From an uncultured virus (IMG/VR IMGVR_UViG_2061766007_001805) (taxonomy: Duplodnaviria; Heunggongvirae; Uroviricota; Caudoviricetes), in IMG/VR virus record IMGVR_UViG_2061766007_001805: 62,391 nucleotides of DNA. One strand, given 5' to 3'. A model generated the notes under the pieces. That model made no database searches and was not told the origin of the DNA. It saw nothing but the letters and a program-made list of their open reading frames with translations. Position 1 is the first letter of the stretch; every line of letters starts with the position of its first letter. Of this stretch, positions 447 through 58,561 are shown in pieces. The position numbers and the translations under genes were made by a program.

Positions 447-3400
447 ATGGGACAGAAAATAGAACATGGATTTAACAAAACTTAGGATGTTGGCACTCCA
501 ACATCATCACTGAACATACCGGCGTCGTCTATTATCATTCCTGCTCATCCAAAGAAGCGGGTGGAATCGGAAGATGCGGTTGGCGAGCCATTATCTGGAG
601 CATCTGAGCAGACAGAAAATTGTTTTGCTGCGAAACATTAGTTTAATTCGGATTTAACAAATGATGTTGGCAGTCCAACATCATCAACTTGTTTTGCTGC
701 GAAACAACAGGCTGGCACTTCAACATCATCTTCCGGAAATCAGAGGATGTCAGCCGGCAGTCCAACAGGAAATGCGGAGTCTGTGGTTGGTGAGCCTGGG
801 TTGTCAAGTTGTTTTGCTGCAGAACATTAGTTTAATTCGGATTTAACAAATGATGTTGGTGAGCCAACATCATCAAATCGTTCTGCAGCAAAACATCAAG
901 CTGACAGTATCCCAACATCGTCAACAAATTCTGTTGCATCACCCGTGTCTTGCGGAAGTCCAACGTCATTTCGCGGAACATCTGCATCATTTCGCGGAAC
1001 TATACAGTCGGAATCTTCAGCAGAGCAGTCATATTCCGGCACTCCAACATCATCTTACGGAAGTTCTATGGAATCTCGCGGAACCGGAACTGCATTTGGC
1101 GGAGCTGCAACATCATTTGGCGGAAGTTCATCATCATCGGCAGAGTCTGAAGCATCATTAGCAGACTCTGAAGCATCTGCACAGGTTAGTGATGACATTA
1201 CTGCGGATGATGTTGATAGTCCGGTGTCAGACAGTTCCGTATTAAAGCGTAAGCGTGGTCGTGTAAAGGGCAGTGTTTCGTCGAATAAGAGCAGTGGTGC
1301 ATCAAAGAAGATTGGAAAGTACGTATATAGTAAGGATGAAGCGGATGATGAGAAAAACAGTGTGTATGTCGATACAGAGAATTACTTTGACGCAGATCGT
1401 CTTGATGACAATCAGCCGATGAAGCAGGATCGCAAGTTATACAATGAGCCTATTGACATTCCGGATTGTTCTGAAGAGCGTTGGAAGTCTGTATGGAATG
1501 TCTCAGATGAGTACAAGTTGTACATTTCGAATCACGGAAGGGTCCGTATTATACCGGAAATCAAGACTAACAAGCACGGACGTCGTTTTCTCAACATACA
1601 TGGTGTTATGTATCCGATAGATGTGCTTGTAGCGTCTCTGTTCACTACGAATCCTACGAAGTCTGAGTTGGTTATTCACACGGACAGCAGTGTGGGCAAT
1701 GATCGTGCTGACAATCTGTGTTGGGTTCCGAACAAGACTGTTGATTATCCGGTCATCACTATGTGTAATATGACTACGAACACTTATCAGCACAAGTTGT
1801 ATCCGCGTCAGACTGTGGCGTTGATGAAGGATATGATGCACCGTATGATTCTGGACAAGATTCTGGTTCCTCTGATGCCTGGTTTGGCTCGTTGTCAGCG
1901 TCAGGTGATATATGACGGTATTTCTGAAGAGATGAACGATGAGGTTCTTGAGTACATAAGGGAGAAGTATCCGTATATGATGCCTGATGACATAGAGTGG
2001 TTGGGTGACAAGCCGGACAGGTTCAGGAGAAAGTGGAATCATGTGGTTAAGGGTAACAATGAGTACTTGTTGTCTGATGAGGAGTATGCAAGGGCGAAGG
2101 AGAACAAGGTTCAGCAGGTCAAGGACAGGGTGACTGCGTGGAACGAGTACCAGATTATGAGCAATTTGTATGACGGCGGTATAGACGGCGTGAAGTTGGG
2201 TGTGGATGTCGGTCCTTCCGGTGTGTATATGGATGACAGGCATGCGAGGGAGTATGTGGATGATTTGAGGAAGAGCGGTGAGAGCCGTTTGTCTTCGTTG
2301 CAGTACACGGATTTCAACAGGAGAATGAGAGAGCATAACGGTGCATAGCCTGCCAAGAGGTGGAATAACACGGATTTGGATAAAGGTTGTTACGGTGATA
2401 GTGTGAATCGTTCTGCTGCAGAACATCAGGCTGGTTCATCTCAGATGAGCAGTGAGTCTGGTAGCGGTTCGTCTCAGAAGAGCGGTGATTCCGGTCAGAA
2501 GCAGATGACAGCCGGTGACTGGTTCGGCAGTGCGTACGGTGCCGGCGGAATGAGCGGTGCGGTTGAGACTGTGGTGAAGAAGAAGGTGAGTGGTGTTCCT
2601 GATGTAGATGAGAATAATACGGATTTAACAAATGACAGTTATGGTATGTCACAAGCAAATCGTTCTGCAGCAAAACAATTGGCTGATTACTATTATGAAG
2701 ATGAGGATGAAGAAGATGATGATTCTTCTGAAGACAGTCCTGTGAATATCCACATTAATAGAGAAGATAATGAAGATGACAGTCTTGCCGGTCTGTATAG
2801 GGGCGGTAATACGAAGAAAGTGATAAAGATGAAAGAAGATGCTGTGAAGAGACAGCAATAGAGAGAGCAGGAGAATGTGAATTACAAGCGTTCTTCAGGG
2901 CGTGTTATGTTTGACGAATTCAAAGAGTACTTGGGTGGTAAACCTATGACAATGGAAGAGTACAAGAAGAAGCTGGAAGAGTATGAAGAGTTTAGAGAGC
3001 AGGGGTTCATGTATGCTAATTTTGACGAGAGTGTGTTTGAAGGCGGAGTGACTATGTTGGATCACGAGCCGTTGCTGACTCCGAATTAGAGACATGTGAG
3101 GTGGATGCGTGAGAACGGCAAGAGCATTAACGGCACTGTGGTGAAGAGAGACGACACCGGCATAAGATATTTCATTGATGAGAACGGTAAGTGGAGAGTG
3201 ATTATGGAGATTCCTGCGCCTGAGTTGCTGACAATCCGTGGAAAGTGGAATTTTGGCGGGGGAAGAAGGAGTCCGGTTCTGTGCACGTTCCCTAACGGCA
3301 AGGAGATGGTGTTCTGGAGTATAATATGTGCTGCTAAGTACTTGAATTTGGATATTGCGAATATAGTGAATTGTTGTCTTGGTAAGTCATCGATGACTGG

Positions 3401-3767
3401 TGGTATGAAGTTCAGGTATGTGGATGTCAAGGATGAGACGAGAGTCAATGATTTTTATGAAGCAAGATTGGAAGAAGACATAAGGGCATCTGAAGATGAT
3501 GACACTGACGATGAAGATTGCATATATGTTCTGAAACCTAAAATTGATGAGAATGGAAATACTGTGGATAGAAAGAAGGGACGTCCGAAGAAGAGTGAGT
3601 ACAGAAAGTTGTACAAGCCTAAGCAGACTGCCGGTGGTGTTCTGAATGTCATTGACAGAGCATTAGGTGACGTGTTTAGCACTGAAAAGAAGAAAAAGAT
3701 TAAACTGGATGACTATACTCCGACTGAATAGTAGATATAGGATATGCTGGACAGCAGTTTGGGGTGA
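447..3767 (+). CDS. ~1106 aa protein (code 15): Ser-rich repetitive N-terminus, NUMOD4 + degenerate HNH-like domain, acidic linker, NUMOD1-like HTH and AT-hook-like motifs
   Basis: ORFs 945-2348, 2376-2861, 2877-3089 and 3096-3731 share one frame and are separated only by TAG. The frame is open from ATG 447 to TGA 3765-3767. Motifs: ERWKSV...YISNHGRVR (NUMOD4), VLVASLFTTNP...IHTD...NDRADNLCWV (HNH_3-like), FWSIICAAKYL...IVNCCLGK...GGMKFRY (NUMOD1), KKGRPKK. The start codon is uncertain. Confidence 0.7.
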
Positions 3768-11624: not shown

Positions 11625-12449
11625 ATGATNNNNNNNNNNNNNNNNNNNNNNNNNNNNNNNNNNNNNNNNNNNNNNNNNNNNNNNNNCTTGGAGATAACAG
11701 ATGATGATATTATAGTAGATAATCCGCTTGAGCAACCATATGATATAAATGCCGTTGATAAACATCTCACATCTTATTATGAACGCTGTCTATTATTAGC
11801 ATTGATATATGAAAAAGATATATATGCTTTAGATTCACATCCGCATATTATCAATTTGCTCAATAAAGTAAAACATTTCCTTGATGTTTACAACATAGAA
11901 TATGAATATGTATTCCGAGACAAATCAAAGGGAATTGGAAATCTGTACTTATATGATGTCGGCGACTTCAGTGTGATTTCATCATACTATCCAGAATCAT
12001 CGTTAAACTACAAAAGCAACAGATACTACAATGGTGTGACTATTGTCATATATATGAGGAAGATACCAAAGTTCACATATAAGGAATCATATCACTTCAT
12101 TCATAGATTATATAATACATTATGGAGATAGTATATGAATTATGATTCCATGAGAATCACAAAATATAAGAACTTATACACTTGGAATGAAATATGTGAT
12201 TTCATGAGAATCACAAATAAGCCGATTTCACTATATGGGGATATTCTGAATGATTCGTGGAAAGATACGTCAATAACATTAAGAGACCTTACAAATCGAC
12301 GAATAATATATAACTTGCCTTATAGGGATTATTTCAAAAAAGCATTACTGTGTTTCCATAACACAGACGAAGACATAATGATAATTGATGACATGTGTAG
12401 TAAACTCAAAAATGGTATTGACCCGTTCAAAAGCAGTAATGTGCATTGA
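11625..12449 (+). CDS. MILNE-family paralog, subfamily C (PY..FFKKA..DPF), spans an N gap
   Basis: In-frame fragments across a TAG; 5' part hidden by Ns. Confidence 0.75.
11630..11686. other. Assembly gap (N run)
   Basis: Run of n characters. Confidence 0.99.
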
Positions 12450-14006: not shown

Positions 14007-14903
14007 TCAATGTATAGTTTTACGGAATGTACATGTAGGATAATTACTGCATCCCAGGAAGGGACCGTACTGTCCGTGTTTCCTGATTAGCGTGCTTCCG
14101 CATTTCGGACAGATACCGGCATTGATTTTATCTTCTTTATCTTGTATGGTTGCGTGTATATTGTTGATATGGGTTTTCATAGAAACTTCATTTACAATAT
14201 TATTTGCAGTCAGTAACCGAGCAATCTCCTTTACATCTTCTGGTTGTATATACATTGCTCCATATTCTCTATATTCACGGAATATGTTCAATAATCCGAA
14301 GCCGTCTACGACATGGTATGCTGAACGTATGTTGCTTATGTCCGTATTGCCGACAAAACAGACAACTGGAATTACAGGCAGATTTTTCCAAGCTTTCAAT
14401 TTATTTTTTATAGCATATGTGTGCCCTATTGACTGTTTTACCGGGTTATAGAATTTGTATTTTGTTTTATAGGTATAAGTCTTGAATGGATTGCTTCTAT
14501 AATTCACATCAGTGAGTATTACCTGTGTCCATTCTTCTTGGTTGTCTTGACCGTATATAATTCCTCTGTAATTTTTTGTTTCTATTGCAAATATGCCGTA
14601 TTTTGAGACTACGATATGGTCGATCTGAGACGTAGTTCCATTATTAGTTAACAAGACTACATCATCCAGTATAATGAAACCATTTGGAAGATTCATCAGA
14701 ATGTTATGAACTTGTGCTTCACCGAGCTTGCCCCTGTATTGTGACAAATCAGTGCCAGATTCAGTTTTGGAACATTTATTAACCGATTTTCTCAGGTTAA
14801 AATATAAAATAACCGATAAGAGAAAGCCTATGAGTATTAGTATGTAAAAATACATAGGTATATAATCAAATAGAGCCATAATAGACATACAAATAGTAGA
14901 CAT
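14007..14903 (-). CDS. NERD-domain (nuclease-related) protein with N-terminal membrane anchor and C-terminal topoisomerase-type C4 zinc ribbon
   Basis: GKLGE, SQIDHIVVSKYGIFAIETKNY.G, FYNPVKQ, CPKCG...G.YG.FLGCSNYP.C; upstream TAnnTTTG promoter motif near 14922-14931. Confidence 0.9.
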   Translation of the reverse strand: MSTICMSIMALFDYIPMYFYILILIGFLLSVILYFNLRKSVNKCSKTESGTDLSQYRGKLGEAQVHNILMNLPNGFIILDDVVLLTNNGTTSQIDHIVVSKYGIFAIETKNYRGIIYGQDNQEEWTQVILTDVNYRSNPFKTYTYKTKYKFYNPVKQSIGHTYAIKNKLKAWKNLPVIPVVCFVGNTDISNIRSAYHVVDGFGLLNIFREYREYGAMYIQPEDVKEIARLLTANNIVNEVSMKTHINNIHATIQDKEDKINAGICPKCGSTLIRKHGQYGPFLGCSNYPTCTFRKTIH

Positions 14904-21167: not shown

Positions 21168-22772
21168 TTAAAATAAGGATACTTGAAGTTGTTTAACATC
21201 GTCTATTCTATTTGATGCTTTCTTTACCGGTTTCGGCGACTCATAACATCCATCGCATTTGATTTTGAAATTATAATACTTGCCGGTTGATTCACTGATG
21301 ATGTTAAGATTCACATTATCTCCCAAATCGATTAAAGTGAGCAAGTGGTGTAATCTGTCTATTTCTTCAGGTGCTCTTAAAATCAAGTCCACGTTAATTC
21401 TGTCCACATGGGAAAAACATGTTGCAAACATAGGCATATACGTCACAAAAGAAGGTAAGGACTCTACTTCAACGCTAACAGTATCAAAGTCCGTATTCTT
21501 CTGCATAAGGTCATCAAAGACATTCTGCGGTTCTATTGCACAACCTTTATAGCCATTCGATGCAATGTAGAAATTCCCTTCAGTATTCTCCACATTTACA
21601 TTATTCATGAAATCTTCATAATCAAGCAATCTCTTTATCTTGCTTGCTATCGTATAGCCTATATGAGTAGGAACAGCTTCACCTATGCATCTCCTGATGT
21701 TTCCTTCATTTGCCTTCAAGTATTCGTCGGAGTTTTCAACAGTTAATTCAGCATCATGGTCTGTCCATTGAAATGTATTTGGAATTGTCATCAGAGTCAT
21801 AAGTTCCCTAATGCTGAGAACACGATTATCACATGGGTGAATTGTATCTTGCGATGACATAATATCACTCCTGGTTGCAATGCACGCACCGGGTCTGTTC
21901 CATATGAGTCTGCGATACTTATTTCCCATATATGCACCCTTATTGATAATACGATTACCATCTTTGTCAAAAGTACATGGCTTGGTATCGTCCGGATTAT
22001 CAAAGGCTGTCTCTCCTTCTTTTAAGTCCTTTATCCAGGCAAGCATATACTCAGGGAAAGGACGTGCAAAATGGAAAGGATCGTGTTTATCTTTCTCTCC
22101 AAAAGCAAGACGTGGAAAACTGCCAATGGAATCTCTGAGCAAAATCTCATTCTTTCTTGTCGGAAATAAATCAAGGGGCATAACATGGTGGAGTTCACGG
22201 CTTGTACCAATCACAAGTGTTCTTGGTCTGCTTGATGGAACGCCATAATCCTTGAAATTAATTATCTTCCAATAAATGTTATAATATTCAGACAGATTAT
22301 TAAATATGCAATCCCTTATAGTCATATCTTGACCGGATATGTCTGTGCAAATGGATTTCATAAATGCACGGACATTCTCGAACACAAAGACTTTAGGATG
22401 GATTGTCATAATCATCCTAATAGCTTCGACGACAAGAGAGTTTCTGATCTGCTCATGTTCATTCTTCTTATAGTTAGCCGTTGACATGCCTTGACATGGG
22501 GGTGTAGCGAACACTACATCAACTTGTTGTAGGTTATGCTTATCTCGCCACATCTGTATTTCATCCATAATCATTTGATGTGTTTCCGGAGATGTTGCAT
22601 CACCGCAGATATAACCGCTTTCGTAACGGCATTTGTGATTGGCACGTTGTACTGATATTCTGGATTCCTGTAATTCATTGGATGCTATGCACTCGAAATC
22701 GTTCATTTTGAAGCCGTAGCATCCTACACCGGCACAACTGAAAAGTGATATGTAAGTTCTTGTCATATACAT
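21168..22772 (-). CDS. C5 cytosine DNA methyltransferase (orphan; start may be 22766)
   Basis: Motif I SLFSCAGVG, catalytic PPCQG, FENV, RPRT, R.LS.RE, GEAVP. Confidence 0.92.
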   Translation of the reverse strand: MYMTRTYISLFSCAGVGCYGFKMNDFECIASNELQESRISVQRANHKCRYESGYICGDATSPETHQMIMDEIQMWRDKHNLQQVDVVFATPPCQGMSTANYKKNEHEQIRNSLVVEAIRMIMTIHPKVFVFENVRAFMKSICTDISGQDMTIRDCIFNNLSEYYNIYWKIINFKDYGVPSSRPRTLVIGTSRELHHVMPLDLFPTRKNEILLRDSIGSFPRLAFGEKDKHDPFHFARPFPEYMLAWIKDLKEGETAFDNPDDTKPCTFDKDGNRIINKGAYMGNKYRRLIWNRPGACIATRSDIMSSQDTIHPCDNRVLSIRELMTLMTIPNTFQWTDHDAELTVENSDEYLKANEGNIRRCIGEAVPTHIGYTIASKIKRLLDYEDFMNNVNVENTEGNFYIASNGYKGCAIEPQNVFDDLMQKNTDFDTVSVEVESLPSFVTYMPMFATCFSHVDRINVDLILRAPEEIDRLHHLLTLIDLGDNVNLNIISESTGKYYNFKIKCDGCYESPKPVKKASNRIDDVKQLQVSLF

Positions 22773-23883: not shown

Positions 23884-24269
23884 CTGTATATGGATAAATC
23901 GGTTTCATTATTTATTCTTAATTGACTGGTAAATGGCTTTTACTACGCTTCAGGTTTAAAAACGGCAGTTTATCACGGATATTCTGTAGAATCATATAAG
24001 AGCTTTGATAGTTGCTGTCCCGGTTCCAACATCATCTCTTGAGTTTCATTTGATTAAGTTGTTTTGCTGCAGAACAATTAGTTAGTTTAGAAATTCAACA
24101 TATTAAAGAAGGTAACGATATACGTGTTGACACATTTTAATTCATATATATTTGATTGACAACTGATTGTGTTGTATTTTGTATTTAATTATTCATATAT
24201 TTGATTTTCATATAAATTGTTTGTTGATTTCAGAATTTTTTTGTAACTTTGCCTGCAAATAAAATTTAT

Positions 24270-25385
24270 ATGATACAGGCTTACAGATATAAGATATTAC
24301 CTGATGCTCAACAGAAAGTTGTTTTATCTAACTTTTTCGGTTGTGCAAGATTCATATATAACTGGGGTTTGAATATAAAGACTAAAGAATACGAGACAAG
24401 CAAGAAAAGTGTCTCATATAATCAACTTGCTAAAGAACTCACTCAACTCAAGAAGAAAGAACAATATTCATGGTTGAATGATGTAACTGTAGAATCTCTA
24501 CAGCAGTCTTTACGGAATCTTGAAACTGCTTTTTCCAAATTCTTTAAGAAAGAAGCAGAATATCCTCAGAAGAAAAAGAAGAGAAAATGCAAAGACTCTG
24601 TGAAATTCATTAGGAATATCCATTTTGATTTCAATAAATGGATGGTTAAACTACCGAAGATTGGTTGGGTGAGTCTTTGCAAGAACAGGATGTTTGATAC
24701 AAACTCATGTAAAACCGGAACTTGTACTGTCAGCAGAGATGCTTGCGGTGAATATTGGTGTTCTATCTTAGTGGATGACAAGCATATTGCTCCGATGAAA
24801 GCCAAATTGGAGAAAGATAATGCAGTCGGCATCGATTTGGGCATCAAAGACTATGCTATACTCTCTGACGGTATCAAGTTCCATAATCCGAAATATCTTG
24901 AGAGAACAAGTCGGAAACTCACATGGACACAGAGGTCTTTTTCAAGAAAGACTAAAGGTTCAAAGAACAGAGAGAAACAGAAGACTAAACTCCTGAAGTA
25001 TTACAGACTTGTCACTAACCAGAGAATTGACTATCTTCATAAGGTTTCCACGGAAATTGTCAGAAATTACAATACAATATGTATTGAAGATCTGAATGTG
25101 GACGGTATGATGAAGAATCATAAACTGGCAAGAAGCATACAGTCTGCAAGTTGGAGTGAGTTCAGAAGGATGTTAGAGTATAAGTCTGAGTGGTATGGTA
25201 AAAATCTGCTTGTCATCGGCAGGTTTGAACCAAGCAGCAAGACTTGTAATAAATGCGGATACATCAAGAAAGACTTGACATTGAAAGACAGAGAATGGAT
25301 ATGTCCTGTATGCGGAGAACATCATGACAGAGATGTTAATGCTGCAAGAAATATCTTGGATATGTCTTTTAAAAATGTGAAATAA
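24270..25385 (+). CDS. tnpB: TnpB RNA-guided endonuclease (IS200/IS605 OrfB family), 371 aa
   Basis: AYRYKI.P...FGCARFIYNWGL HTH; RuvC GIDLG, IEDL and DRDVNAARNI; SSKTC..C / CPVCG zinc finger; TAACTTTG promoter motif at 24244. Confidence 0.95.
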   Translation: MIQAYRYKILPDAQQKVVLSNFFGCARFIYNWGLNIKTKEYETSKKSVSYNQLAKELTQLKKKEQYSWLNDVTVESLQQSLRNLETAFSKFFKKEAEYPQKKKKRKCKDSVKFIRNIHFDFNKWMVKLPKIGWVSLCKNRMFDTNSCKTGTCTVSRDACGEYWCSILVDDKHIAPMKAKLEKDNAVGIDLGIKDYAILSDGIKFHNPKYLERTSRKLTWTQRSFSRKTKGSKNREKQKTKLLKYYRLVTNQRIDYLHKVSTEIVRNYNTICIEDLNVDGMMKNHKLARSIQSASWSEFRRMLEYKSEWYGKNLLVIGRFEPSSKTCNKCGYIKKDLTLKDREWICPVCGEHHDRDVNAARNILDMSFKNVK

Positions 25386-48400: not shown

Positions 48401-49162
48401 ATGCTATTAAAGGAAAACTACTTTGATGACATAGAAATCACTGATGATGACATTAAAACTCAGGACAGTCACATAGAGAGTCCGGAGAGTTCAATTACCG
48501 GCACATATGCTAATCCACAAGAGTGGTTTAATGATATGAAGAGTAAGTATTCTCATATCATGGTAATAGTCTTGCAGAAAGATGAAATCATGTCACAAAC
48601 CGATTTATGGGAAACCAAAATACCCGGTATGTTCAAAAGACTCAAATACATATTCAATGCATACGGAGTAGAATATTCGGAACCGGTAATACAGGACACA
48701 TGGCAGGACTATTTATAGAGTAAATACAGACATTGCAAATACTTCGACTGGTACGGCTATAAGTTGATTTCAGTGTTCGATAGCATTTCCATGATTAATA
48801 TGAAGCACTTTAACGTCGGCATATCCAACTTATGTGTGGTACTGTATTTCAATAAGCCGGATAATTATACATACACAAGAGCGTGCAAGTTCATTAGAGA
48901 CATCAAGAATTATTTCTGGAAAGATGACTTATACAGAAATATTATTATAAACAATACGATAAACTTCGACTCATACAAAGTAAAATACGGACTGAAGTTG
49001 AGGAATCCGGCTTATTACACTATTAATAATTCACCAAGCGGTAGAATTAGCCAGATGTTTGATATAATCAGATACTTCTTCCCTGGAACAGACGAAGATG
49101 AACTTTTACAGGAATTATAGAATAACTACGATCTTGTCGAGAAAATCTCCAAGTATGTCTGA
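48401..49162 (+). CDS. MILNE-family paralog, 253 aa (code 15)
   Basis: 2 TAG; TGA at 49160. Confidence 0.85.
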
Positions 49163-49386
49163 ACAGTCTCAATCACGGTATGGCAAGACTATGTGTCAGA
49201 ACAACCAGCATTAAGTCGGTTACTGTTAGGTATCATCAAGTTGTTTTGCAGCAAAACTATTGGACTGCCAGACATCATCTGCATAATATAAAAATAGAGC
49301 ACTATCCTCACGGACCGTGCTCTCTAATAGTTAAGATAGAAATATAAACATCTTTATAAATTAAACTGCTGTTTTCTCATTTGGTT

Positions 49387-50118
49387 TTAAAATAATAATA
49401 TGCTTTTCGATAACTTCTTGTACAGTTTTTTATCATTATCAACTTCGTACTTTAATATCTCTTTGTCTTTTTCCGGAAAGAACATATGGAGTGTGTCGAA
49501 TATTTTCATTTTTATAGTTCTTCTGTCTGATGTTGCTTCATGTATAGTAAGACGGTTTATTCGAACATCCGGTTGTATGGATTTCTTGCTAATGTTCCGT
49601 ATATAGAACTGGATAAAGTAATTGTTATAACCGTTGTTGGACCAAATGCATTTTGTAATATTCCTGATGAAATTGCAGGCTGCGGTATATGAATGTGCTT
49701 TCGGAAGATTGAAATATATAAAAATGAACATGTACTCATAATTTTTCAGTTCTTCCTGAGTGATCATTTTGAATCCGTGATAGTCAAGGAAATAAGATTT
49801 TCTGTATTTTTCCAAAATGTTATCAACTGCGTAGTGATAATAATCATCCTCATCCTGGAATACCGGCTCAGAATGCTCGATACCGTACATGTCGAACATA
49901 TACCGGAGTTTCTTGAAGACATTCGGGACTTTAACACTAAGTGTGTCCAGTTCAGTCAGTTCGCATACGGATATTTCCAAACAATGAGTGTATTTGGATT
50001 TCATATCTATGTACCATTCTTCTGGACTGTGATACTCATCACCGGCAATGCCGTCTGAAGTTTCGATGTCTTCATCAGTCAGTTTCAAATCATCAAAGTA
50101 GTCTTCGTTTAATCTCAT
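49387..50118 (-). CDS. MILNE-family paralog, 243 aa
   Basis: Intact ORF. Confidence 0.9.
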   Translation of the reverse strand: MRLNEDYFDDLKLTDEDIETSDGIAGDEYHSPEEWYIDMKSKYTHCLEISVCELTELDTLSVKVPNVFKKLRYMFDMYGIEHSEPVFQDEDDYYHYAVDNILEKYRKSYFLDYHGFKMITQEELKNYEYMFIFIYFNLPKAHSYTAACNFIRNITKCIWSNNGYNNYFIQFYIRNISKKSIQPDVRINRLTIHEATSDRRTIKMKIFDTLHMFFPEKDKEILKYEVDNDKKLYKKLSKSILLF

Positions 50119-50234
50119 CTGTATATGGATAAATCAGTTTCATTATTTATTCTCTGGTAAGATGATGTTCGGTACTTCAAGCATCTCTTGAAAGTGATTT
50201 GATAATATTGTTCTGTAATGAAACTATTGGCTTG

Positions 50235-50452
50235 TCAGTTAAATAAACTTAAATAATTGTGTGAATTATTGTATTGTGGTTTATTATTCATACCTTTGTA
50301 TCAGCAAAAGCAACGAACCTCAGTCTATACACATCGGCTGATTAAGTCTAAGATACTGGAACTGATGCAGTTAAGTGTGGAATAAAGAAACTGGTTGGTG
50401 AAAGTTGCTGAATTGAATGTACTGTTATTCAATTATATAGTGATATATTGGA
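50235..50452 (+). promoter_or_regulatory. CRISPR leader with Bacteroidetes promoter (TACCTTTG at 50291); homologous leaders at ~52778-52998, 54681-54893 and 56303-56520
   Basis: Four alignable copies, each directly 5' of an array. Confidence 0.8.
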
Positions 50453-51966
50453 GTCTATACAGTGTCATTATTTCTACTTTATGTAGATTCTTCGAGTACT
50501 TCGAACAACAAACGGAGTCTATACAGTGTCATTATTTCTACTTTATGTAGATATGATTGTATTTTGTTTAAGTTGTTTCAAGTCTATACAGTGTCATTAT
50601 TTCTACTTAAATGCCTACTTCCGTAGGTTGTAGATTCTGCAAGAAGCCTCTTTACACGATTCGTCTATACAGTGTCATTATTTCTACTTTATGTAGATCC
50701 GCAAACAACACATCTGTACAGACCGAGTATATACAGTGTCATTATTTCTACTTCATGTAGATCAATAAGATCTTCCATAGAGACTGTGGAAGTATATACA
50801 GTGTCATTATTTCTACTTTATGTAGATGAAAACCAAACTTAAAAAATAGAGTATAAAGTATATACAGTGTCATTATTTCTACTTTATGTAGATGAATATC
50901 TCTATGAGAGCCGGTCTATACAGTATCATTATTTCTACTTCATGTAGATCTGTGATATTCGCCTTGTATGGTGAATGTAGTTTATACAGTATAATTATTT
51001 CTACTCAAATGCCTACTTCAGTAGGTTGTAGATGTGGCATTGGTTGCCGTTTTCTGTATGTGTCTATACAGTATCATTATTTCTACTTCATGTAGATATG
51101 AGCAATGACATCACTGTACCAATTAAGTCTATACAGTGTCATTATTTCTACTTCATGTAGATGCAAGTGATATGGTTATCTTGATTTGTGAGTCTATACA
51201 GTGTTATTATTTCTACTTAAATGCCTACTTCCGTAGGTTGTAGATGCAATGTAAAGATTGTATCAGACTCTAACGTCTATACAGTATCATTATTTCTACT
51301 TCATGTAGATATATTGACTTCTCGCAAAACAAATTATGTCTATACAGTGTCATTATTTCTACTTAATGCTCACTTCCGTGGGTGTGTAGATCAGTACGGT
51401 CATGACTTGACAGAAGAAGGTATCCTACAATATCATTATTTCTACTTCATGTAGATTATAATATTATATAGCGTCTATACAGTGTCATTATTTCTACTTA
51501 ATGTAGATAAAAAATGCTAGTATAATTTTCAGAAGAGTCTATACAATATCATTATTTCTACTTAATGCCTATTTCCGTAGGTTGTAGATGTCGTCATTAT
51601 ATCACTCACTCTGGTCTTCAGATCTATATAATATCATTATTTCTACTTCATGTAGATCATTGTCCTTTGATTCCAGCAAGATGACCGAATTCTTTAAGAA
51701 TATATACAACAGTATAATTATTTCTACTTAATGCCTATTTCCGTAGGTATGTAGATGTGGGCACTTATCCTGAGAAAGTAGCGGTGTCTATACAGTGCCA
51801 TTATTTCTACTTCATGTAGATTTCTGCTTTCTTTCCGTTGAATATCCTTTGTATATACAGTATCATTCATTTCTACTTAAATGCCTACTTCTGTAGGTAT
51901 GTAGATATGTAATATTCGCCGCCTTTGTGTGAGAACTCAAGACAATATCATTCGTTTCCACTTAAT
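50453..51966 (+). CRISPR. CRISPR array 1, Cas12a-type repeat GTCTATACAGTGTCATTATTTCTACTTTATGTAGAT; 22 repeats / 21 spacers; 7 long-loop repeat variants
   Basis: 36-nt repeats with mostly 27-30 nt unique spacers; 3' ATTTCTAC-loop-GTAGAT matches the type V-A crRNA handle. Confidence 0.93.
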
Positions 51967-52591
51967 GCTGGCACTACCATAAGTCACGTACTAATGCTTC
52001 CTTCCGTAGATAAGGATACTTAAGGAAATCGGTTACATCTGCTATATAGAACCCCCAGTTCGTAAGGTTATAATGTTTTTTTATCAATTCGAGATTAGAA
52101 ATATTCAAGTCGGTGTTCCTGTTAATCTTAGCTATCTGTTGGGCGATGTTGCTGATGAATCTACAAGCAAAACTATATGAATGGGCTGTCGGGAGATTGA
52201 GAAATATCACCATTCTCAGATTGTTACTGATTTCATTCAAATCCCTATACTTCGTTATCAACTTATAACCATACAGGTCAAATAAATTACAAGATTTGTA
52301 TCTTTCTTTAATACATATATACGAATGTGTCTGCAGAGTAGGCTATGAGTATTCTATTCCGTATACATTGAATATGTATTGAAGTCTCTTGACGATATGT
52401 GATATTCTATCTACCGAGTGCTTGTCTTTTATTTTAACATCAAAACCCAAACAATGACTGTACTTTGACTGCATGTCTATGTACCATTCTTCCGGACTGT
52501 TATACTCATTACCGACAATGTCGTCATCATGAGTTATAATGTCGTCATCGGTCAGTTTCAAATCATCAAAGTAGTCTTCGTTCAATCTCAT
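51962..52591 (-). CDS. MILNE-family paralog, 209 aa (code 15); stop codon lies inside the last CRISPR repeat
   Basis: TAGs at 52343 and 51974; TAA at 51962-51964. Confidence 0.8.
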
Positions 52592-52998
52592 CTGTATATG
52601 GATAAAGTATTTTCATTATTTATTCTTCAGTAGGATGATGCCCGGTAATTTACCATAACTGCGTTAGCTGCTATAAAAACAGCAGTTTATTATGGAAGAC
52701 AAAAAAACGGTCCGGCACTTCAACTACATCTCTTGATAGTGATTTGATGATATTGTTCTATAACAAAACGATTGAATTGTCAGTTAAATAAACTTAAATA
52801 ATTGTGCAATGTTATTGTATTGTGGTTTATTATTCATACCTTTGTAGCATCAAAAGCAATGAACCTCAGTCTCTACATAATTGCTGAATTCAGATAAGAT
52901 AATGAAACTGAATGAGTTAATTAAAAATGTGGAAAATCAGCAGGTAAAAGTTGCTGAAGATGATGTGCTGTTATTCAATTATATAGTGATATATTGGA

Positions 52999-53767
52999 GT
53001 CTATACAGTGTCATTCATTTCTACTAATGTAGATCGGGATTGTCGCCCCATACACGTGATGTAGTCTATACAGTGTCATTCATTTCTACTAATGTAGATA
53101 TTGATGAAATAATAATACAGATTCATGTCTATACAGTGTCATTCATTTCTACTAATGTAGATTGAGAATTCTTAATGAGTTTGCCCTCAAGTCTATACAG
53201 TGTCATTCATTTCTACTAATGTAGATGGTTTGTTAATTATGTCTATACAGTGTCATTATTTCTACTTTATGTAGATACAACGGAATAATCCTTAATGTGA
53301 ATTGTTAAGACAGTGTTATTATTTCTACTTAATACCTACTTCCGTAGGTTGTAGATACCTATTCATCTCCATGTACGTTATTTAGTCAAGACAGTATAAT
53401 TATTTCTACTAATGTAGATGAATTGAATAGTCTATTGATACGTCTATGCAGTATAATTATTTCTACTTAATGCCTACTTCCGTAGGTATGTAGATACAAC
53501 GGAATAATCCATAATGTGAATTGTTAAGACAGTGTTATTATTTCTACTTAATACTTACTTATGTATGTTGTAGATAAGCATCACCTTGAAATCGTGTCTA
53601 TACAGTATCATTATTTCTACTTCATGTAGATGCGGTTATGATAGTCAAATGATGACATTGTCTATACAGTATCATTATTTCTACTTAATGCCTACATCCG
53701 TAGGTTGTAGATTGGTACCACAAAACGCTCATGACACATGTATATACAGTATCATTATTTCCACTTA
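52999..53767 (+). CRISPR. CRISPR array 2, 12 repeats / 11 spacers
   Basis: Repeat GTCTATACAGTGTCATTCATTTCTACTAATGTAGAT and variants, 4 of them long-loop. Confidence 0.92.
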
Positions 53768-54517
53768 TTGCTCAATTCCATAAGTAGTTCTCTGATTCTT
53801 TGCAAATAGACATCCGAGTACACAATCTCTATCGTGCTCATTCAACACTTGCTTGTAGAAACTGTTATAGTCATTGAATGATTTAGCATCACTGCCGTAC
53901 ACATTTATCTCTTCTTCATATGTACTGTAATAATAACCGCCGTCTATGGAAAAGAGGTTTACAAGGAAATCATCACGTTTGAAGATAGTCTTTGTTAGAT
54001 AGTAAAGAAATTTCATTCCCTGCTGTATTGTATTGAAATCAGGCATATTGAAATGCATATAAAGTACATACCAGCGTGATTCATATTCCCCATTAGTTCT
54101 CTTGATTTGAGTATCTTTACATGCAAGGTGTATGTATCCGTAGTCATATATGTTGTAATTCGGTATGGAATGACCATCTATTTCAACCGTGTTGTCATAA
54201 TCTTCTTCATACGTGTCTATCAAGAATAGTTCGGAGTGTTCTATTCCGTATGTGTCGAACAGATTGTATAGCATAGTCTATATCTTCTTTACAGTGACCG
54301 GATTTATATCATGGCTTAACGCTTCACGATTTGAAATTTTGAAATCAATACACAATCTGTCAGTGTAATGTTTCTCACAGTACAGAATATATTCATATCC
54401 GGACTGGAAGTTTTTATGTGATTTAATAAACATATCTTCACCAACAGTGCTGTCTGAAGACGTAATGTCGTCATCAGTCAATTTCAAATCATTAAAGTAG
54501 TCTTCTTTTAATATCAT
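53765..54517 (-). CDS. MILNE-family paralog, 250 aa (code 15); stop codon inside the last repeat
   Basis: One TAG at 54278. Confidence 0.85.
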
Positions 54518-54893
54518 CTGTATATAGATAAAGTGGTTTCATTATTTATTCTCTCTGTATGATGTCCGGTAATTTTCCGTAACTACGCTTCAGGTTAAAA
54601 AACAGCAGTTTATTGTGGAAACATAAAAGAAGCCAGTCCGGTAATTTGGCTACATATATTCTGTAATGAAACAATTGGCTTGTCAGTTAAATAAACTTAA
54701 AATATTATCCAATAATATTATATTGTGATTTTATATTTGTACCTTTGTAACAGCAATAGCAACAAACATCAGTCTATATACATCGGCTGATTAAGCCTAA
54801 GATACTGGGACTGACACAGTTAAGTGTAGAATAATGGAACTGGTGAATAAAAGTTGCTGAATCGAATGTGCTGTTATTCAGTTACTTAGCAGT

Positions 54894-55230
54894 ATTCTGA
54901 CAGTATCATTATTTCTACTTAAATGCCTACTTCCGTAGGTATGTAGATTAAATCTCTGTCTTTTTGCAGAATCTTCTGTCAAGACAGTATCATAATTTCT
55001 ACTTAAATGCTTACATTCGTAGGTCGTAGATACTTACTCGTCGCCATGCACGTCATTTAGTCAAGACAGTATAATTATTTCTACTTAATGTAGATCTTTG
55101 GGCGAACTCATCAAGAAAGCCTTTGTCAAGACCGTATCATTATTTCTACTTAATGTAGATAACAACGTTTAATAAAAACTTCAGTCAAGACAGTATCATT
55201 ATTTCTACTTAATGCCTACTTCCGTAGGTC
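54894..55230 (+). CRISPR. CRISPR mini-array 3, 5 repeats / 4 spacers
   Basis: GTCAAGACAGTATCATTATTTCTACTTAATGTAGAT variants, 3 of them long-loop. Confidence 0.88.
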
Positions 55231-55274
55231 GGAAAACAGTTCTTCAGTTTCATATGATGTTGTCCATGAGTTCA

Positions 55275-55997
55275 TCAATTATCTGATGTGAATTGATCGG
55301 AGATGAACATATTAAGTCTTCTTAGTATGGTTTCATCCGGTGCGATTGAAGTATAGTTCATATATTCTTTTTGGTTTATATGAAAACCGTACTGCGACTC
55401 TGGTTGAAAAATGTTATTAACAACCATCTTATTCGGATCCTGTATATAAAGTGTGTACATATTGAAAATTTTTCTATATGATTCGTTGTTCCATAAACAT
55501 TTCATAATGGCATTGATGAACTTGCATGCTTCTGAATACTTATGTACTTTGGGCAAGTCTAAGAACATCATAACACACATCTCCCATTGTGTGATGCAGT
55601 TGCGTTTGTATTCTTCCATACTATTGTATGGCGTAACGAACTTGTAACCGCGGAAGTCGATAAAGTTACAATGGGCATAATCTTCATCCCTTCTCAAATA
55701 ATAATGCCGTAGTACTGGTTCAGAGTAATCTATTCCGTATACATCGAATATATAGTGAAGCTTCTTGAGAATAGACGGTATCACATTATCCCATATGTAA
55801 TATTGTTTTTCCGATAAGATTTTGTTGCCGTCTTTCTCTAACCTGATAAGCAGACAGTGGCTGTACTTGGATTTCATATCCCTGTACCATTTTTCCGGAT
55901 TCCTGTATTCGACAGCAACAGGCAGGTTGTCTGATGAAGACTCTATGTCATCGTCAGTGATTTTATTGTCATCAAAGAAATCTTCGTTCAATCTCAT
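55275..55997 (-). CDS. MILNE-family paralog, 240 aa
   Basis: Intact ORF; the family C-terminal remnant (KLKNCFP) continues past TGA into the last repeat. Confidence 0.85.
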   Translation of the reverse strand: MRLNEDFFDDNKITDDDIESSSDNLPVAVEYRNPEKWYRDMKSKYSHCLLIRLEKDGNKILSEKQYYIWDNVIPSILKKLHYIFDVYGIDYSEPVLRHYYLRRDEDYAHCNFIDFRGYKFVTPYNSMEEYKRNCITQWEMCVMMFLDLPKVHKYSEACKFINAIMKCLWNNESYRKIFNMYTLYIQDPNKMVVNNIFQPESQYGFHINQKEYMNYTSIAPDETILRRLNMFISDQFTSDN

Positions 55998-56072
55998 CTG
56001 TATATGGATAAAGTAGTTTCATTATTTATTCTTCAGTAAGATGATGTCAGGTACTTCAACTGCATCTCCCTA

Positions 56073-56182
56073 TACCATATTTCCGGATTAGTGCATTCGA
56101 CAGCAGTAGTCTGGTTGTCTGATGAAGACTCAATGCTATCGTCAGTGATTTTATTATCAAATAGGTATTCGTTCAATAACAT
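56073..56182 (-). pseudogene. Degraded 5' fragment of a family gene (copy of the start of 55275-55997)
   Basis: MLLNEYLFDNKITDD-like start with the conserved upstream motif, then breaks off. Confidence 0.7.
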
Positions 56183-56520
56183 CTGTATATGAATAAAATA
56201 TTTTCATTATTTATTTTTCGGTAATATGATATCAGGTACTTCAACCGTATCTCTTGATAGTGAATCGGTGATATTGTTCTGTAATAAAACAATTGGCTTT
56301 AAGAGTTAAATAAACTTAAATACTTGTGTGATGTTATTGCATTGTGGTTTTATATTTGTACTTTTGTATCAGCAAAAGCATCAAGCCTTAGCATCTACAC
56401 AATTGCTTGAGTATGTTTAATATATTAAGACTGAAAGAGTTAATTGGAAATGTGGAAAACTGGTGAGTAAAAGTTGCTGAATAGAGTGTACTGTTATTCA
56501 GTTACTTAGCAGTATTCTGA

Positions 56521-56848
56521 GTCAATATAGTATAATTATTTCTACTTTATGTAAATCGAGAATCCGTTCCAACCACTACGGCGAGTCAAAATAGTATAAT
56601 TATTTCTACTTAATACCTACCTCCATAAGTGTAGGTCGTAGATAGGTCCTCAATGCACTTGTGGTCAGTAATGTCTATACAGTGTTATTATTTCTACTTC
56701 ATGTAGATTATCGATGATAATCATCTTCTATAAGTCTATACAGTATAATTATTTCTACTTAATGCCTACATCCGTAGGTTAGGTATGTAGATGAAAGGTG
56801 ATTGGTGAAGCATATGTACTGTCTATACAATATCATTATTCTTACTTA
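56521..56848 (+). CRISPR. CRISPR mini-array 4, 5 repeats / 4 spacers
   Basis: Same handle; 2 long-loop variants. Confidence 0.85.
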
Positions 56849-57451
56849 AAAGTCTTCTTCAGTAAGATCCACTCTCATTGAATATACTCCGACTGTTTGA
56901 ATTTCCTGAGTTGCATATGACTCAAACTGGTAAACTGGTTCAGTTTCGGAATCAGCACCCATAATGTATGTCACAAGACCTTCAGTGAAATAACTGTCAT
57001 CCGACTTGCTATCACGTAATGCGGATAGTGCGAGAGATGCACTGTGTGGCGGGAAATCTCCAGGGAATACACATCCGAAGAACGGACTATCCGTAACATC
57101 AACTGTTATATCACTGAGACTTGAGTCAGAGAACCAGACGAACAGTGTAGGTGCATTCATATATCCTTCACCGTCATGCTGAAGGATTGTGTACACACCG
57201 TGACACTCTTTTCCGTGTTCTTTGTCTATCAGGACAGATACAGTGCCGTCTTCTTCAGAGTCCTGCTTTACGTACCAGCCTTGAAACTCATACAGCAATA
57301 CAAGTTGTCCCGGATAATTGTCATTTGCCCAGCGACGTACCATGACATTCATTTTGTAAAGCAGGTCATTGAAATCAGCAGTGACCGGTGTGTCATAGTG
57401 CAGTTCAGGTTCATTGTCTGTGCCTAATACAAGATGATTGTTAGCTTCCAT
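56846..57451 (-). CDS. Hypothetical acidic protein, 201 aa (MEANNH...), unrelated to the family; stop codon inside the last repeat of array 4
   Basis: ATG at 57451 after an A-rich leader; the extra 48 aa in the ORF track come from the MITE and UTR. Confidence 0.75.
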   Translation of the reverse strand: MEANNHLVLGTDNEPELHYDTPVTADFNDLLYKMNVMVRRWANDNYPGQLVLLYEFQGWYVKQDSEEDGTVSVLIDKEHGKECHGVYTILQHDGEGYMNAPTLFVWFSDSSLSDITVDVTDSPFFGCVFPGDFPPHSASLALSALRDSKSDDSYFTEGLVTYIMGADSETEPVYQFESYATQEIQTVGVYSMRVDLTEEDF

Positions 57452-57502
57452 TGTGTATAGTATTTTATTTTTGATGTGAATTGATGTAATTGTAAAAAGT
57501 AT

Positions 57503-57715
57503 GGTAATGATATACATGTTGGCACAAAGCCTTGTATATCTTACTGCTTCATATGGTTGCCCTCCACAGTCTTTATCCCACTTACCTATGGGCATTTGAT
57601 ATATGTTTATTTATGAGCGAAGTTACAAAAAAATTCTGAAACCAACAAACATTTTCATAATAAATTATTAATCTAATTATTATGACTAAATTGTGCCAAC
57701 ATATATATTGTTACC
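57503..57715 (-). mobile_element. 213-bp MITE of the TIR-TnpB element (promoter plus putative omegaRNA region, tnpB deleted)
   Basis: TIRs GGTAATGATATACATGTTGGCACA / TGTGCCAACATATATATTGTTACC; 8-bp duplication AAAAGTAT at 57495-57502 and 57716-57723; interior matches 24218-24250 and 25385-25491. Confidence 0.88.
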
Positions 57716-57793
57716 AAAAGTATAACAACATGCTGTTGCTCTTGTCATAGTTCTGCTCTGAAATTTATATCTTGAAGCATTTGTTCTGGCATA

Positions 57794-58561
57794 TTATGAA
57801 GAGAAGCATCTGAATACTATACTGAACAACTCCTATTTGTCAAATACTTCCTGATGTATTGTTTCCAAATCTTTTTCAGGAAAGAACATATTAATCATAA
57901 AAATCACATTCCTATCATCATTAATCACATTCCTATCATCATTGAGATTCCTATGTTTCATATAATAATTATATTCCGAAGAGCTGAATCCATGCATTAA
58001 TGCTTGATAATTATTATCAATGCTCCGAATTTCGAAGTTAGGCACAACTGCTCTGTAATCATCATTAGCTAATATCGTTTTCATTATACTGCCTATAAAC
58101 TGGCATGCTTCCTTATACGAGCGGACTTTTGGTAAATTAAAAAAAATCACTATATATAAATAGTAGCACGGCTGGTCGGGACTGCGCTTAAATTCTTCCA
58201 ATGACTTTCTGAAGGAAATCAATTTATAATCATGTAAATCAATGAAATTGCATGCTCTGTAATTATCACCACAATACATGATGGTATAGTCTTGTATTGT
58301 TGGTTGAGAATACTCTATATCATATACATCCAATACATATTGAAGATTCTTGATCAGATGCGGAACTTTAGTTTTCCAAATATAATCCTTGTGTATGATA
58401 TCACTCTCTTCTATCCTGATGCGGAGAAAGTGACCATACTTGCTCTTCATGTCAGCGAACCATTCTTTCGGATTTGCATATTCGGCAGTGTCACTGTCCG
58501 GAGAAGTGATATCATCATCAGTAATCTCTATCTTATCAAAGTAGTCTTCGTTTAATAGCAT
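57794..58561 (-). CDS. MILNE-family paralog, 255 aa (code 15)
   Basis: TAG at 57833 read through to VFRCF..TAA, as in its neighbour. Confidence 0.85.

Follow-up and report, generated by a model that had tools for sequence, protein, structure and literature searches.

Two spacers located in different arrays of short palindromic repeats that are clustered and regularly interspaced (CRISPR) appear to be directed against the same site of a DNA methyltransferase gene, and they differ from each other almost exclusively at silent codon positions. Both are found in a stretch of 62,391 nucleotides (nt) from an uncultured virus of the Caudoviricetes (IMG/VR record IMGVR_UViG_2061766007_001805), which was analysed over its whole length and is referred to below as the window. 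The best account overall, to which we attach a probability of about 0.6, is that the two spacers are guides to two natural alleles of one methyltransferase site, carried in Cas12a-type arrays of a mobile element. That the pair represents two alleles of one target is well supported by indirect evidence.

Spacer 1 (array 2) and spacer 2 (array 3), both 28 nt in length, each begin directly after a repeat ending in GTAGAT and end directly before the next repeat (Table 1). They differ at positions 3, 6, 9, 12, 18 and 23 (C/T, T/C, A/G, T/G, T/C and T/C, respectively). In frame 1 of the plus strand five of these six changes are silent, the sixth distinguishing TYSSPCTLF from TYSSPCTSF. Frame 3 of the minus strand spells NNVHGDE-TAG and NDVHGDE-TAA, with four of the six changes silent, or five if both stops are equated. 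At least five of six differences would fall in one codon phase by chance with P = 0.026, and at least five of six random substitutions would be silent in any of the six frames with P = 0.004 if unbiased, or P = 0.012 given a transition bias. The silent-site pattern holds up and, taken by itself, would arise by chance with moderately low probability; independent database evidence makes it much stronger. Given this signature of purifying selection, the differences would have arisen in the target gene or been filtered by the need to match it. When all pairs of the 39 spacers in the window were compared, the only other similar pair consisted of 53277-53303 and 53496-53522, both in array 2, 219 nt apart and with a single mismatch at position 16.

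The repeats that flank the pair are also informative. The 5′ part GTCAAGACAGTATAATTA is present in only two of the 39 repeats, those directly downstream of spacers 1 and 2, and these two repeats are identical except for one T in the loop. The two upstream repeats differ by nine substitutions and one indel in 54 nt, and the spacers neighbouring spacers 1 and 2 are unrelated between the two arrays. An earlier, sequence-only reading of this DNA had described the two spacers as having identical boundaries, six differing positions and the same repeat variant after both, with five synonymous changes on either strand. The boundaries, positions and common variant are confirmed by the sequence, the variant being confined to these two repeats; the count of synonymous changes is correct for the TYSSPCT strand and, for the VHGDE strand, is four, reaching five when a change from stop to stop is included.

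The plus-strand translation corresponds to an enzyme motif. As judged from its sequence, TYSSPCT[L/S]F is motif IV (F-TYSSPCTSF-SxxG), containing the catalytic Pro-Cys, of a C5 cytosine methyltransferase. A wobble-degenerate pattern, in which the first two bases of each codon were fixed and the third was left free, occurs at 14 loci in JGI metagenome contigs, most of them of high G+C content (GC) or outside genes. Among the low-GC loci, those nearest to spacer 2 are L009, with three mismatches of 28, and L007 and L014, with four each; compared with spacer 1, the same loci have five to six mismatches, the best being five of 28 (L007 and L014). These three loci are mutually homologous and, of the database sites found, the only ones located in a real gene; they carry the site in frame in a protein of 410 amino acids (aa), at ...ELF-TYSSPCTSF-SMAG, the matched site lying on FTYSSPCTSFSMAG. 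The product of the L007 gene is a C5 cytosine DNA methyltransferase (PF00145, E = 5.8e-43). Motif IV usually takes the form [LIV]FTYSSPC[QT]xFS among its 120 listed relatives, a few of which contain TYSSPCTSF. At L007, L009 and L014 the 5′ flank of the site is GTTT, the TTT directly 5′ of it being supplied by the conserved Phe codon. Judging from their protein sequences, family members with Ile-Phe at this place, or with Phe-Ser before motif I, could give flanks of TTTC or TTTA. The methyltransferase gene of L007 and L014 adjoins two tyrosine integrases, on contigs of ~42% GC, and the target would therefore lie on an integrative mobile element.

Searches elsewhere were less productive. Exact and wobble searches for the spacer site in IMG/VR gave no loci. 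In the GTDB species genomes nine loci fit the pattern, none of which has the F-S-x-x-G continuation of motif IV as judged by translations only. BLASTN of the array region against GenBank phages and PLSDB plasmids gave matches at chance level only (E no better than 0.2). In IMG/VR, the target methyltransferase has relatives at five loci, with 51% identity at best and no spacer-like site within nine mismatches; no relatives of protein cluster P0014 were found in that database. Identity to the target methyltransferase is at most 36% in GenBank phages and at most 29% in plasmids.

Two further spacers point to the same gene family. The spacers of the window were tested against the L007 gene and 121 family proteins, comprising the product of L007 and its 120 listed relatives. 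Since this protein set had been found through spacers 1 and 2, their own matches to it are circular, and those of the two spacers beginning at 53163 and 53632 are independent. Spacer 53163, read as its reverse complement, corresponds to the C-terminal part of the L007/L009 gene on the opposite strand with five of 26 nt mismatched, a level that none of 300 shuffled spacer sets attained, and GKLIKNS is present in four family members. This spacer sits between identical repeats in the young part of array 2. Spacer 53632 reads as motif I, and its GYDSQMM is found in ten family members. In total, four of 34 spacers match 8-mers of the family at seven or more of eight residues, including 53163 and 53632 at 7/8, as compared with none of 204 shuffled spacers; in a shuffled control for exact 7-mer matches, three of 200 spacer sets gave any. 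In both motif I and motif IV, a conserved Phe codon stands immediately before the first residue. Two other spacers had no exact match in IMG/VR.

The arrays that hold these spacers are read, on the basis of their sequence, as type V-A-like (Cas12a/Cpf1), because of the repeat pattern, the unique spacers, the leaders and the form of published Cas12a direct repeats. The repeat pattern TTTCTACT-(3-30 nt)-GTAGAT has 39 matches on the plus strand, against 0.01 expected, and the arrays are confined to 50.4-56.9 kb of the window. In common with type V-A arrays, the repeats are of ~36 nt and end in ...ATTTCTACT-(4-5 nt loop)-GTAGAT, a TCTACT-loop-GTAGAT handle stands directly before each spacer, a leader is present, the direction is the same in all arrays and a T-rich 5′ flank precedes the near protospacers of motif IV. 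Spacers are mostly 26-29 nt long, with a few truncated ones (13-21 nt) and one of 44 nt, and alternate with the repeats at a regular period. The 35-nt direct repeat of Eubacterium rectale Cas12a, as described in the part of the source consulted, ends in the same handle as these repeats (PMC10583194), and Cas12a is reported to recognise the hairpin/pseudoknot handle and to cut just upstream of it (PMC7968991, in part). Unlike type V-A loci, the window has no cas gene within its 62 kb, and its four separate arrays, each with a leader, are set among the genes of a paralogous family.

A further departure from type V-A repeats is that 15 of the 39 repeats here (50600-56792; for example 53322-53356 and 54996-55031) have an extra hairpin in place of the loop. 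In this second, long-loop form, ~22 nt replace the loop of 4-5 nt and fold into a 6-bp hairpin (GCCTAC-TTCC-GTAGGT), with pairing in 96% of cells. A double compensatory change (UA to CG) is seen once, at 51356-51391; covariation of the hairpin was not above that of shuffles, 194 of 500 of which reached the observed score (inner helix only). A limited look at the literature found no description of this repeat form, Rfam has no family in 49000-58000 at E <= 1, and the repeat itself has no matches in IMG/VR. A leader of ~200 nt is conserved before all four arrays and includes the invariant blocks AAAGTTGCTGAA and CTGTTATTCA; about 160 nt before the first repeat it contains a TAnnTTTG-like box, TACCTTTG (TACTTTTG in array 4), which we take to resemble the -7 promoter motif of Bacteroidota. 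The leader-proximal part of array 2 (52999-53226) consists of four identical repeats, as expected if new spacers were recently added at the leader end, and is followed by an older mosaic of long- and short-loop variants, a truncated spacer of 13 nt (53227-53239) marking the junction between the two parts.

Taken together, these observations allow a history of the pair to be proposed. Both spacers would copy the same 28-nt site of a C5 methyltransferase gene, with codons for TYSSPCTSF, which begins directly after the conserved Phe codon and so would be provided with a T-rich 5′ protospacer adjacent motif (PAM). Two separate captures, from two diverged natural versions of the gene, would account for the differences at silent third codon positions, and the non-silent change at position 23, distal to the PAM, is probably a later mutation in the array. 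With four differences within the PAM-proximal 12 nt, each CRISPR RNA (crRNA) should be allele-specific, and keeping both guides would widen the range of rival elements hit. Since these four silent PAM-proximal differences are linked, and a single change would suffice for escape, the sources would be two long-diverged alleles or homologues and not fresh escape mutants. The shared flanking repeat variants do not fit two plain insertions at the leader end, and at some stage arrays must have exchanged modules of the form repeat-spacer-repeat. That modules move is shown by array 2 itself, where both copies of the 53277/53496 spacer precede the same GTTAAGAC long-loop repeat, which identifies a duplication of spacer plus repeat. 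The modules may have been shuffled by recombination between arrays or between co-infecting genomes, and interference would be performed by a Cas12a encoded elsewhere, in the element or in its host.

A number of observations weigh against this account. No perfect protospacer for spacer 1 or spacer 2 was found in IMG/VR, JGI metagenome contigs, GTDB species genomes, GenBank phages or PLSDB plasmids, and L007, L009 and L014 are homologues, not the targets, because they are mismatched at position 3. TYSSPCTLF occurs in none of the 121 family proteins, and GYDSQMM and TYSSPCT occur together in none of them, so that the spacers may be aimed at different family members. The canonical PAM of Cas12a is TTTV; GTTT, with a T at -1, is non-canonical, and the near site of spacer 53163 is flanked by TCGG. 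The genes cas12a, cas1, cas2 and cas4 are absent from the 62 kb window, in which the only relative of Cas12 is a TnpB of 378 aa. Both spacers lie between a long-loop and a short-loop repeat and are followed by a common downstream variant unique to them, which does not fit two simple acquisitions at the leader end. Lastly, the alleles read in two other sequencing runs, X4 and X6 (see below), each come from one short Logan contig (depth 2.7 and 10.8, respectively), among the matches listed.

The sequence-only reading had attributed the pair to two alleles of one protein-coding target, captured repeatedly or updated against escape variants, rather than to neutral drift, and had expected each spacer to match a different strain of the same gene. 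A coding target is upheld by the genes that carry motif IV in frame, and drift is disfavoured by the silent-site probabilities and by a catalytic motif that lies in frame in real genes. The two alleles themselves are supported indirectly: none of the five collections holds an exact match, and the near sites, with three to six mismatches, fall in a single coding gene family. Capture from this family is reinforced by spacers 53163 and 53632, whereas updating against escape variants is less well borne out, the four linked PAM-proximal differences pointing to long-diverged alleles or homologues.

The main rival supposes a single capture against motif IV, followed by copying of the module between arrays and then by point mutation, with selection retaining those changes that matched circulating silent-site variants. 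We consider this possible but doubtful. It would explain the identity of the downstream repeats, which no other module has, and the long-loop form of both upstream repeats, and the 53277/53496 pair demonstrates that modules are duplicated. Other sequencing runs also bear on it. The stretch 52800-55300 is nearly complete in two runs of one cattle-gut sample, and a small part of it is present in 18 further gut runs from 11 other studies; none of the runs listed is an RNA run. Logan contigs of four runs were compared over 50200-57000, the readings covering the matches listed and serving as leads only. In X1, the probable source run, spacer 1 has the same letters as here. A contig of run X4 has C at 53379 (position 23) and the letters of the window at 53359-53368, giving the codon TCA and TYSSPCTSF. 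A contig of run X6 (~53319-53411) has the letters of spacer 2 at positions 3, 6, 9, 12 and 23, neither position 18 nor the upstream repeat being covered by the matches listed, which suggests an array-2 context carrying an allele like spacer 2. If the X4 and X6 readings are right, all allele differences are silent except for the TTA of the window, and the same array position holds different alleles across strains. For the single-capture model, these contigs hint at alleles one step apart (positions 18 and 23) in the same place of the array, and at an array-2-type context joined to a spacer-2-like allele. Against it, the differences at positions 3, 6, 9 and 12 occur jointly: any intermediate would be mismatched to either allele near the PAM, and none is found among the matches listed. 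The nine substitutions and one indel in 54 nt of the upstream repeats, as against none downstream, are also uneven for the copying of one block. Contigs of X1 join the same repeats to spacers absent from the window, which implies more arrays or strain variants in that sample.

It is improbable that the crRNAs are self-directed or regulatory, controlling or policing a methyltransferase of this kind carried by the element or its host. The window is only part of a genome, and four spacers against one gene family are an unusual concentration. However, the 62 kb of the window contain no site within five mismatches, motif IV of the C5 methyltransferase encoded there is a different one, and the nearest homologues of the target reside on integrase-bearing elements of 42% GC, compared with 33% in the window. 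A target on the opposite strand, where the spacers would match the 3′ terminus of a gene (...N[N/D]VHGDE, then TAG or TAA as the stop), is more improbable again. Five of six changes are silent there under translation table 11 when stop-to-stop is counted as silent, but pattern matches on that strand are high in GC or unrelated, L010, the only one that was checked, falls outside any credible gene, and the plus-strand reading has three in-frame gene matches as well as two other spacers to the same gene; with no matching gene end found, this reading was rejected. Least probable of all is neutral drift of a duplicated spacer with a third-base periodicity due to chance, for although only six differences exist and phase clustering alone has P = 0.026, at least five of six silent changes in any frame has P = 0.004-0.012, translation in this frame gives a known catalytic motif, which real genes carry in frame and next to a T-rich 5′ flank, and the further alleles of other runs again differ at silent sites.

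Returning to guides against two natural alleles, some features of this account have parallels. Arrays of the Cas12a type are already known, as are arrays borne by mobile elements and directed against rival elements; the mini-arrays of archaeal viruses illustrate the use of CRISPR arrays in conflicts between mobile elements, as far as the portion of that source seen describes them (PMC6858448). The present arrays resemble these in lying on a mobile element with no cas genes beside them, and in spacers that seem aimed at another mobile element rather than at the carrier. They differ from virus-borne mini-arrays in their size (39 repeats or more) and type V-A form, in having an apparently TAG-recoded and only presumably viral carrier, with no structural genes in the window, and in a target that is a conserved enzyme motif and not the genome of a close relative. 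Huge phages also carry CRISPR loci, and several spacers against one gene or site are seen after primed or repeated acquisition. The four of 34 spacers directed to one gene family, two of them at the same 28-nt site, fit such acquisition, but by the comparison made here the same-site pair differs almost only at silent codon positions, lies in different arrays and has the same flanking repeat variants. A limited search of the literature found no precedent for same-site spacers that differ at silent positions. What appears to be new is this pair, the direction of several guides to catalytic motifs within a single methyltransferase family, the TAG-recoded carrier of the arrays and the long-loop repeat.

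If confirmed, the pair would represent natural CRISPR guides aimed at the catalytic motif of an enzyme, from which the target can escape only through silent changes, and the matching silent-site alleles held in parallel would make an escape-and-update arms race readable from sequence alone. The locus would add a Cas12a-type, array-rich region on a stop-codon-recoded gut element, with methyltransferase-bearing integrative elements as its rivals, and a natural Cas12a handle with an extended loop. Should exact targets prove otherwise, an ordinary pair of related spacers is left. A more comprehensive reading, offered tentatively and unlikely to hold in all its parts together, is that a large recoded phage of rumen Bacteroidota, with no effector close to its arrays, runs a panel of guides against motifs I and IV of the orphan C5 methyltransferases of its rivals by means of a borrowed or distant Cas12a; PAMs formed by Phe codons would restrict escape to silent changes, and the silent-site alleles would be kept and passed between arrays and strains. 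The allelic series of spacers would then record an arms race at single-codon resolution, and Cas12a would have, in the long-loop repeat, a further natural class of handle, the second.

Table 1. Spacers, repeats, arrays and other features of the window (positions are those of the whole stretch)
Feature	Position	Strand	Remarks
Spacer 1	53357..53384	+	Array 2; reads TYSSPCTLF in plus frame 1, methyltransferase motif IV
Spacer 2	55032..55059	+	Array 3; reads TYSSPCTSF in plus frame 1
Long-loop repeat 5′ of spacer 1	53303..53356	+	Would form the 5′ handle of the spacer 1 crRNA
Long-loop repeat 5′ of spacer 2	54977..55031	+	
Short-loop repeat 3′ of spacer 1	53385..53419	+	Variant GTCAAGACAGTATAATTA..., common only to 55060-55095
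Short-loop repeat 3′ of spacer 2	55060..55095	+	Same variant as 53385-53419, one extra T in loop
Spacer 53163	53163..53190	+	LEGKLIKNS(H) in reverse complement; near match (5 of 26 nt mismatched) to the L007/L009 methyltransferase gene, C-terminal part
Spacer 53632	53632..53659	+	Plus frame 3 reads (S)GYDSQMMT, motif I (FSGYDSQMMAL) of the same methyltransferase family
CRISPR array 1	50452..51906	+	21 Cas12a-type repeats (7 long-loop); leader ~50250-50451
CRISPR array 2	52999..53790	+	Leader ~52800-52998; degenerate terminal repeat
CRISPR array 3	54893..55235	+	Four repeats and a degenerate terminal repeat; leader ~54700-54892
CRISPR array 4	56521..56850	+	First repeat ends GTAAAT; three pattern-matching repeats, then a degenerate terminal repeat; leader ~56350-56520
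1106-aa protein, longest open reading frame (TAG=Q)	447-3767	+	Acidic, low-complexity, HNH/NUMOD-like parts, nine in-frame TAG
298-aa protein	14007-14903	-	PHROG of unknown function
534-aa C5 methyltransferase	21168-22772	-	Motif IV FATPPCQGMS, not the spacers' target
TnpB (OrfB_IS605) transposon nuclease	24249-25385	+	

The carrier of the arrays would be a large TAG-recoded phage that infects a member of the Bacteroidota of the cattle gut. Its sequence suggests that TAG is used as a sense codon. With TAG translated, the number of open reading frames of at least 200 aa rises from 24 to 53; the stops used are TAA (33), TGA (16) and TAG (0); and 64 in-frame TAG codons in 47 paralogs occupy alignment columns where Q (2.7x) and E (1.9x) are enriched. 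No transfer RNA gene, suppressors included, was found in the window. Reassignment of TAG is a feature of crAss-like phages, and the low GC, gut habitat and apparent read-through of TAG are common to the present element and to both crAss-like and Lak phages. Lak megaphages of Prevotella reassign the TAG stop codon and, in the sections of the source consulted, CRISPR is mentioned for Lak only as host spacers against these phages and not as phage arrays, unlike the situation here (PMC8346664). Capsid, portal, terminase and tail genes are absent from the window, in which an HNH endonuclease, a methyltransferase, TnpB and a PHROG of unknown function form the only phage-like content; the recoding of TAG is suggestive of a virus, and no relatives of the element were found among GenBank phages or IMG/VR contigs.

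One paralogous family accounts for 47 of the 49 open reading frames of roughly 210-300 aa (4058-61591, with TAG read through), at a median identity of 33% and a maximum of 83%. Its conserved blocks are an N-terminal MILNEDYFDDLEITDDDI, YGIEYSEP, FFNLPK and FFPEK. The family has no match in Pfam or PHROG and no relative in IMG/VR; 49 relatives were found among 5.8 billion clusters, all on short contigs. A structural model (AF2, predicted local distance difference test score 64) has no fold match in the PDB at E <= 0.001, and leads from the Atlas are weak, kinase-like and below the feature count expected of true relatives. One member gene (11625-12449) contains a run of 57 N at 11630-11686. The CRISPR arrays are interleaved with the genes of this family, each array diverging from one gene.

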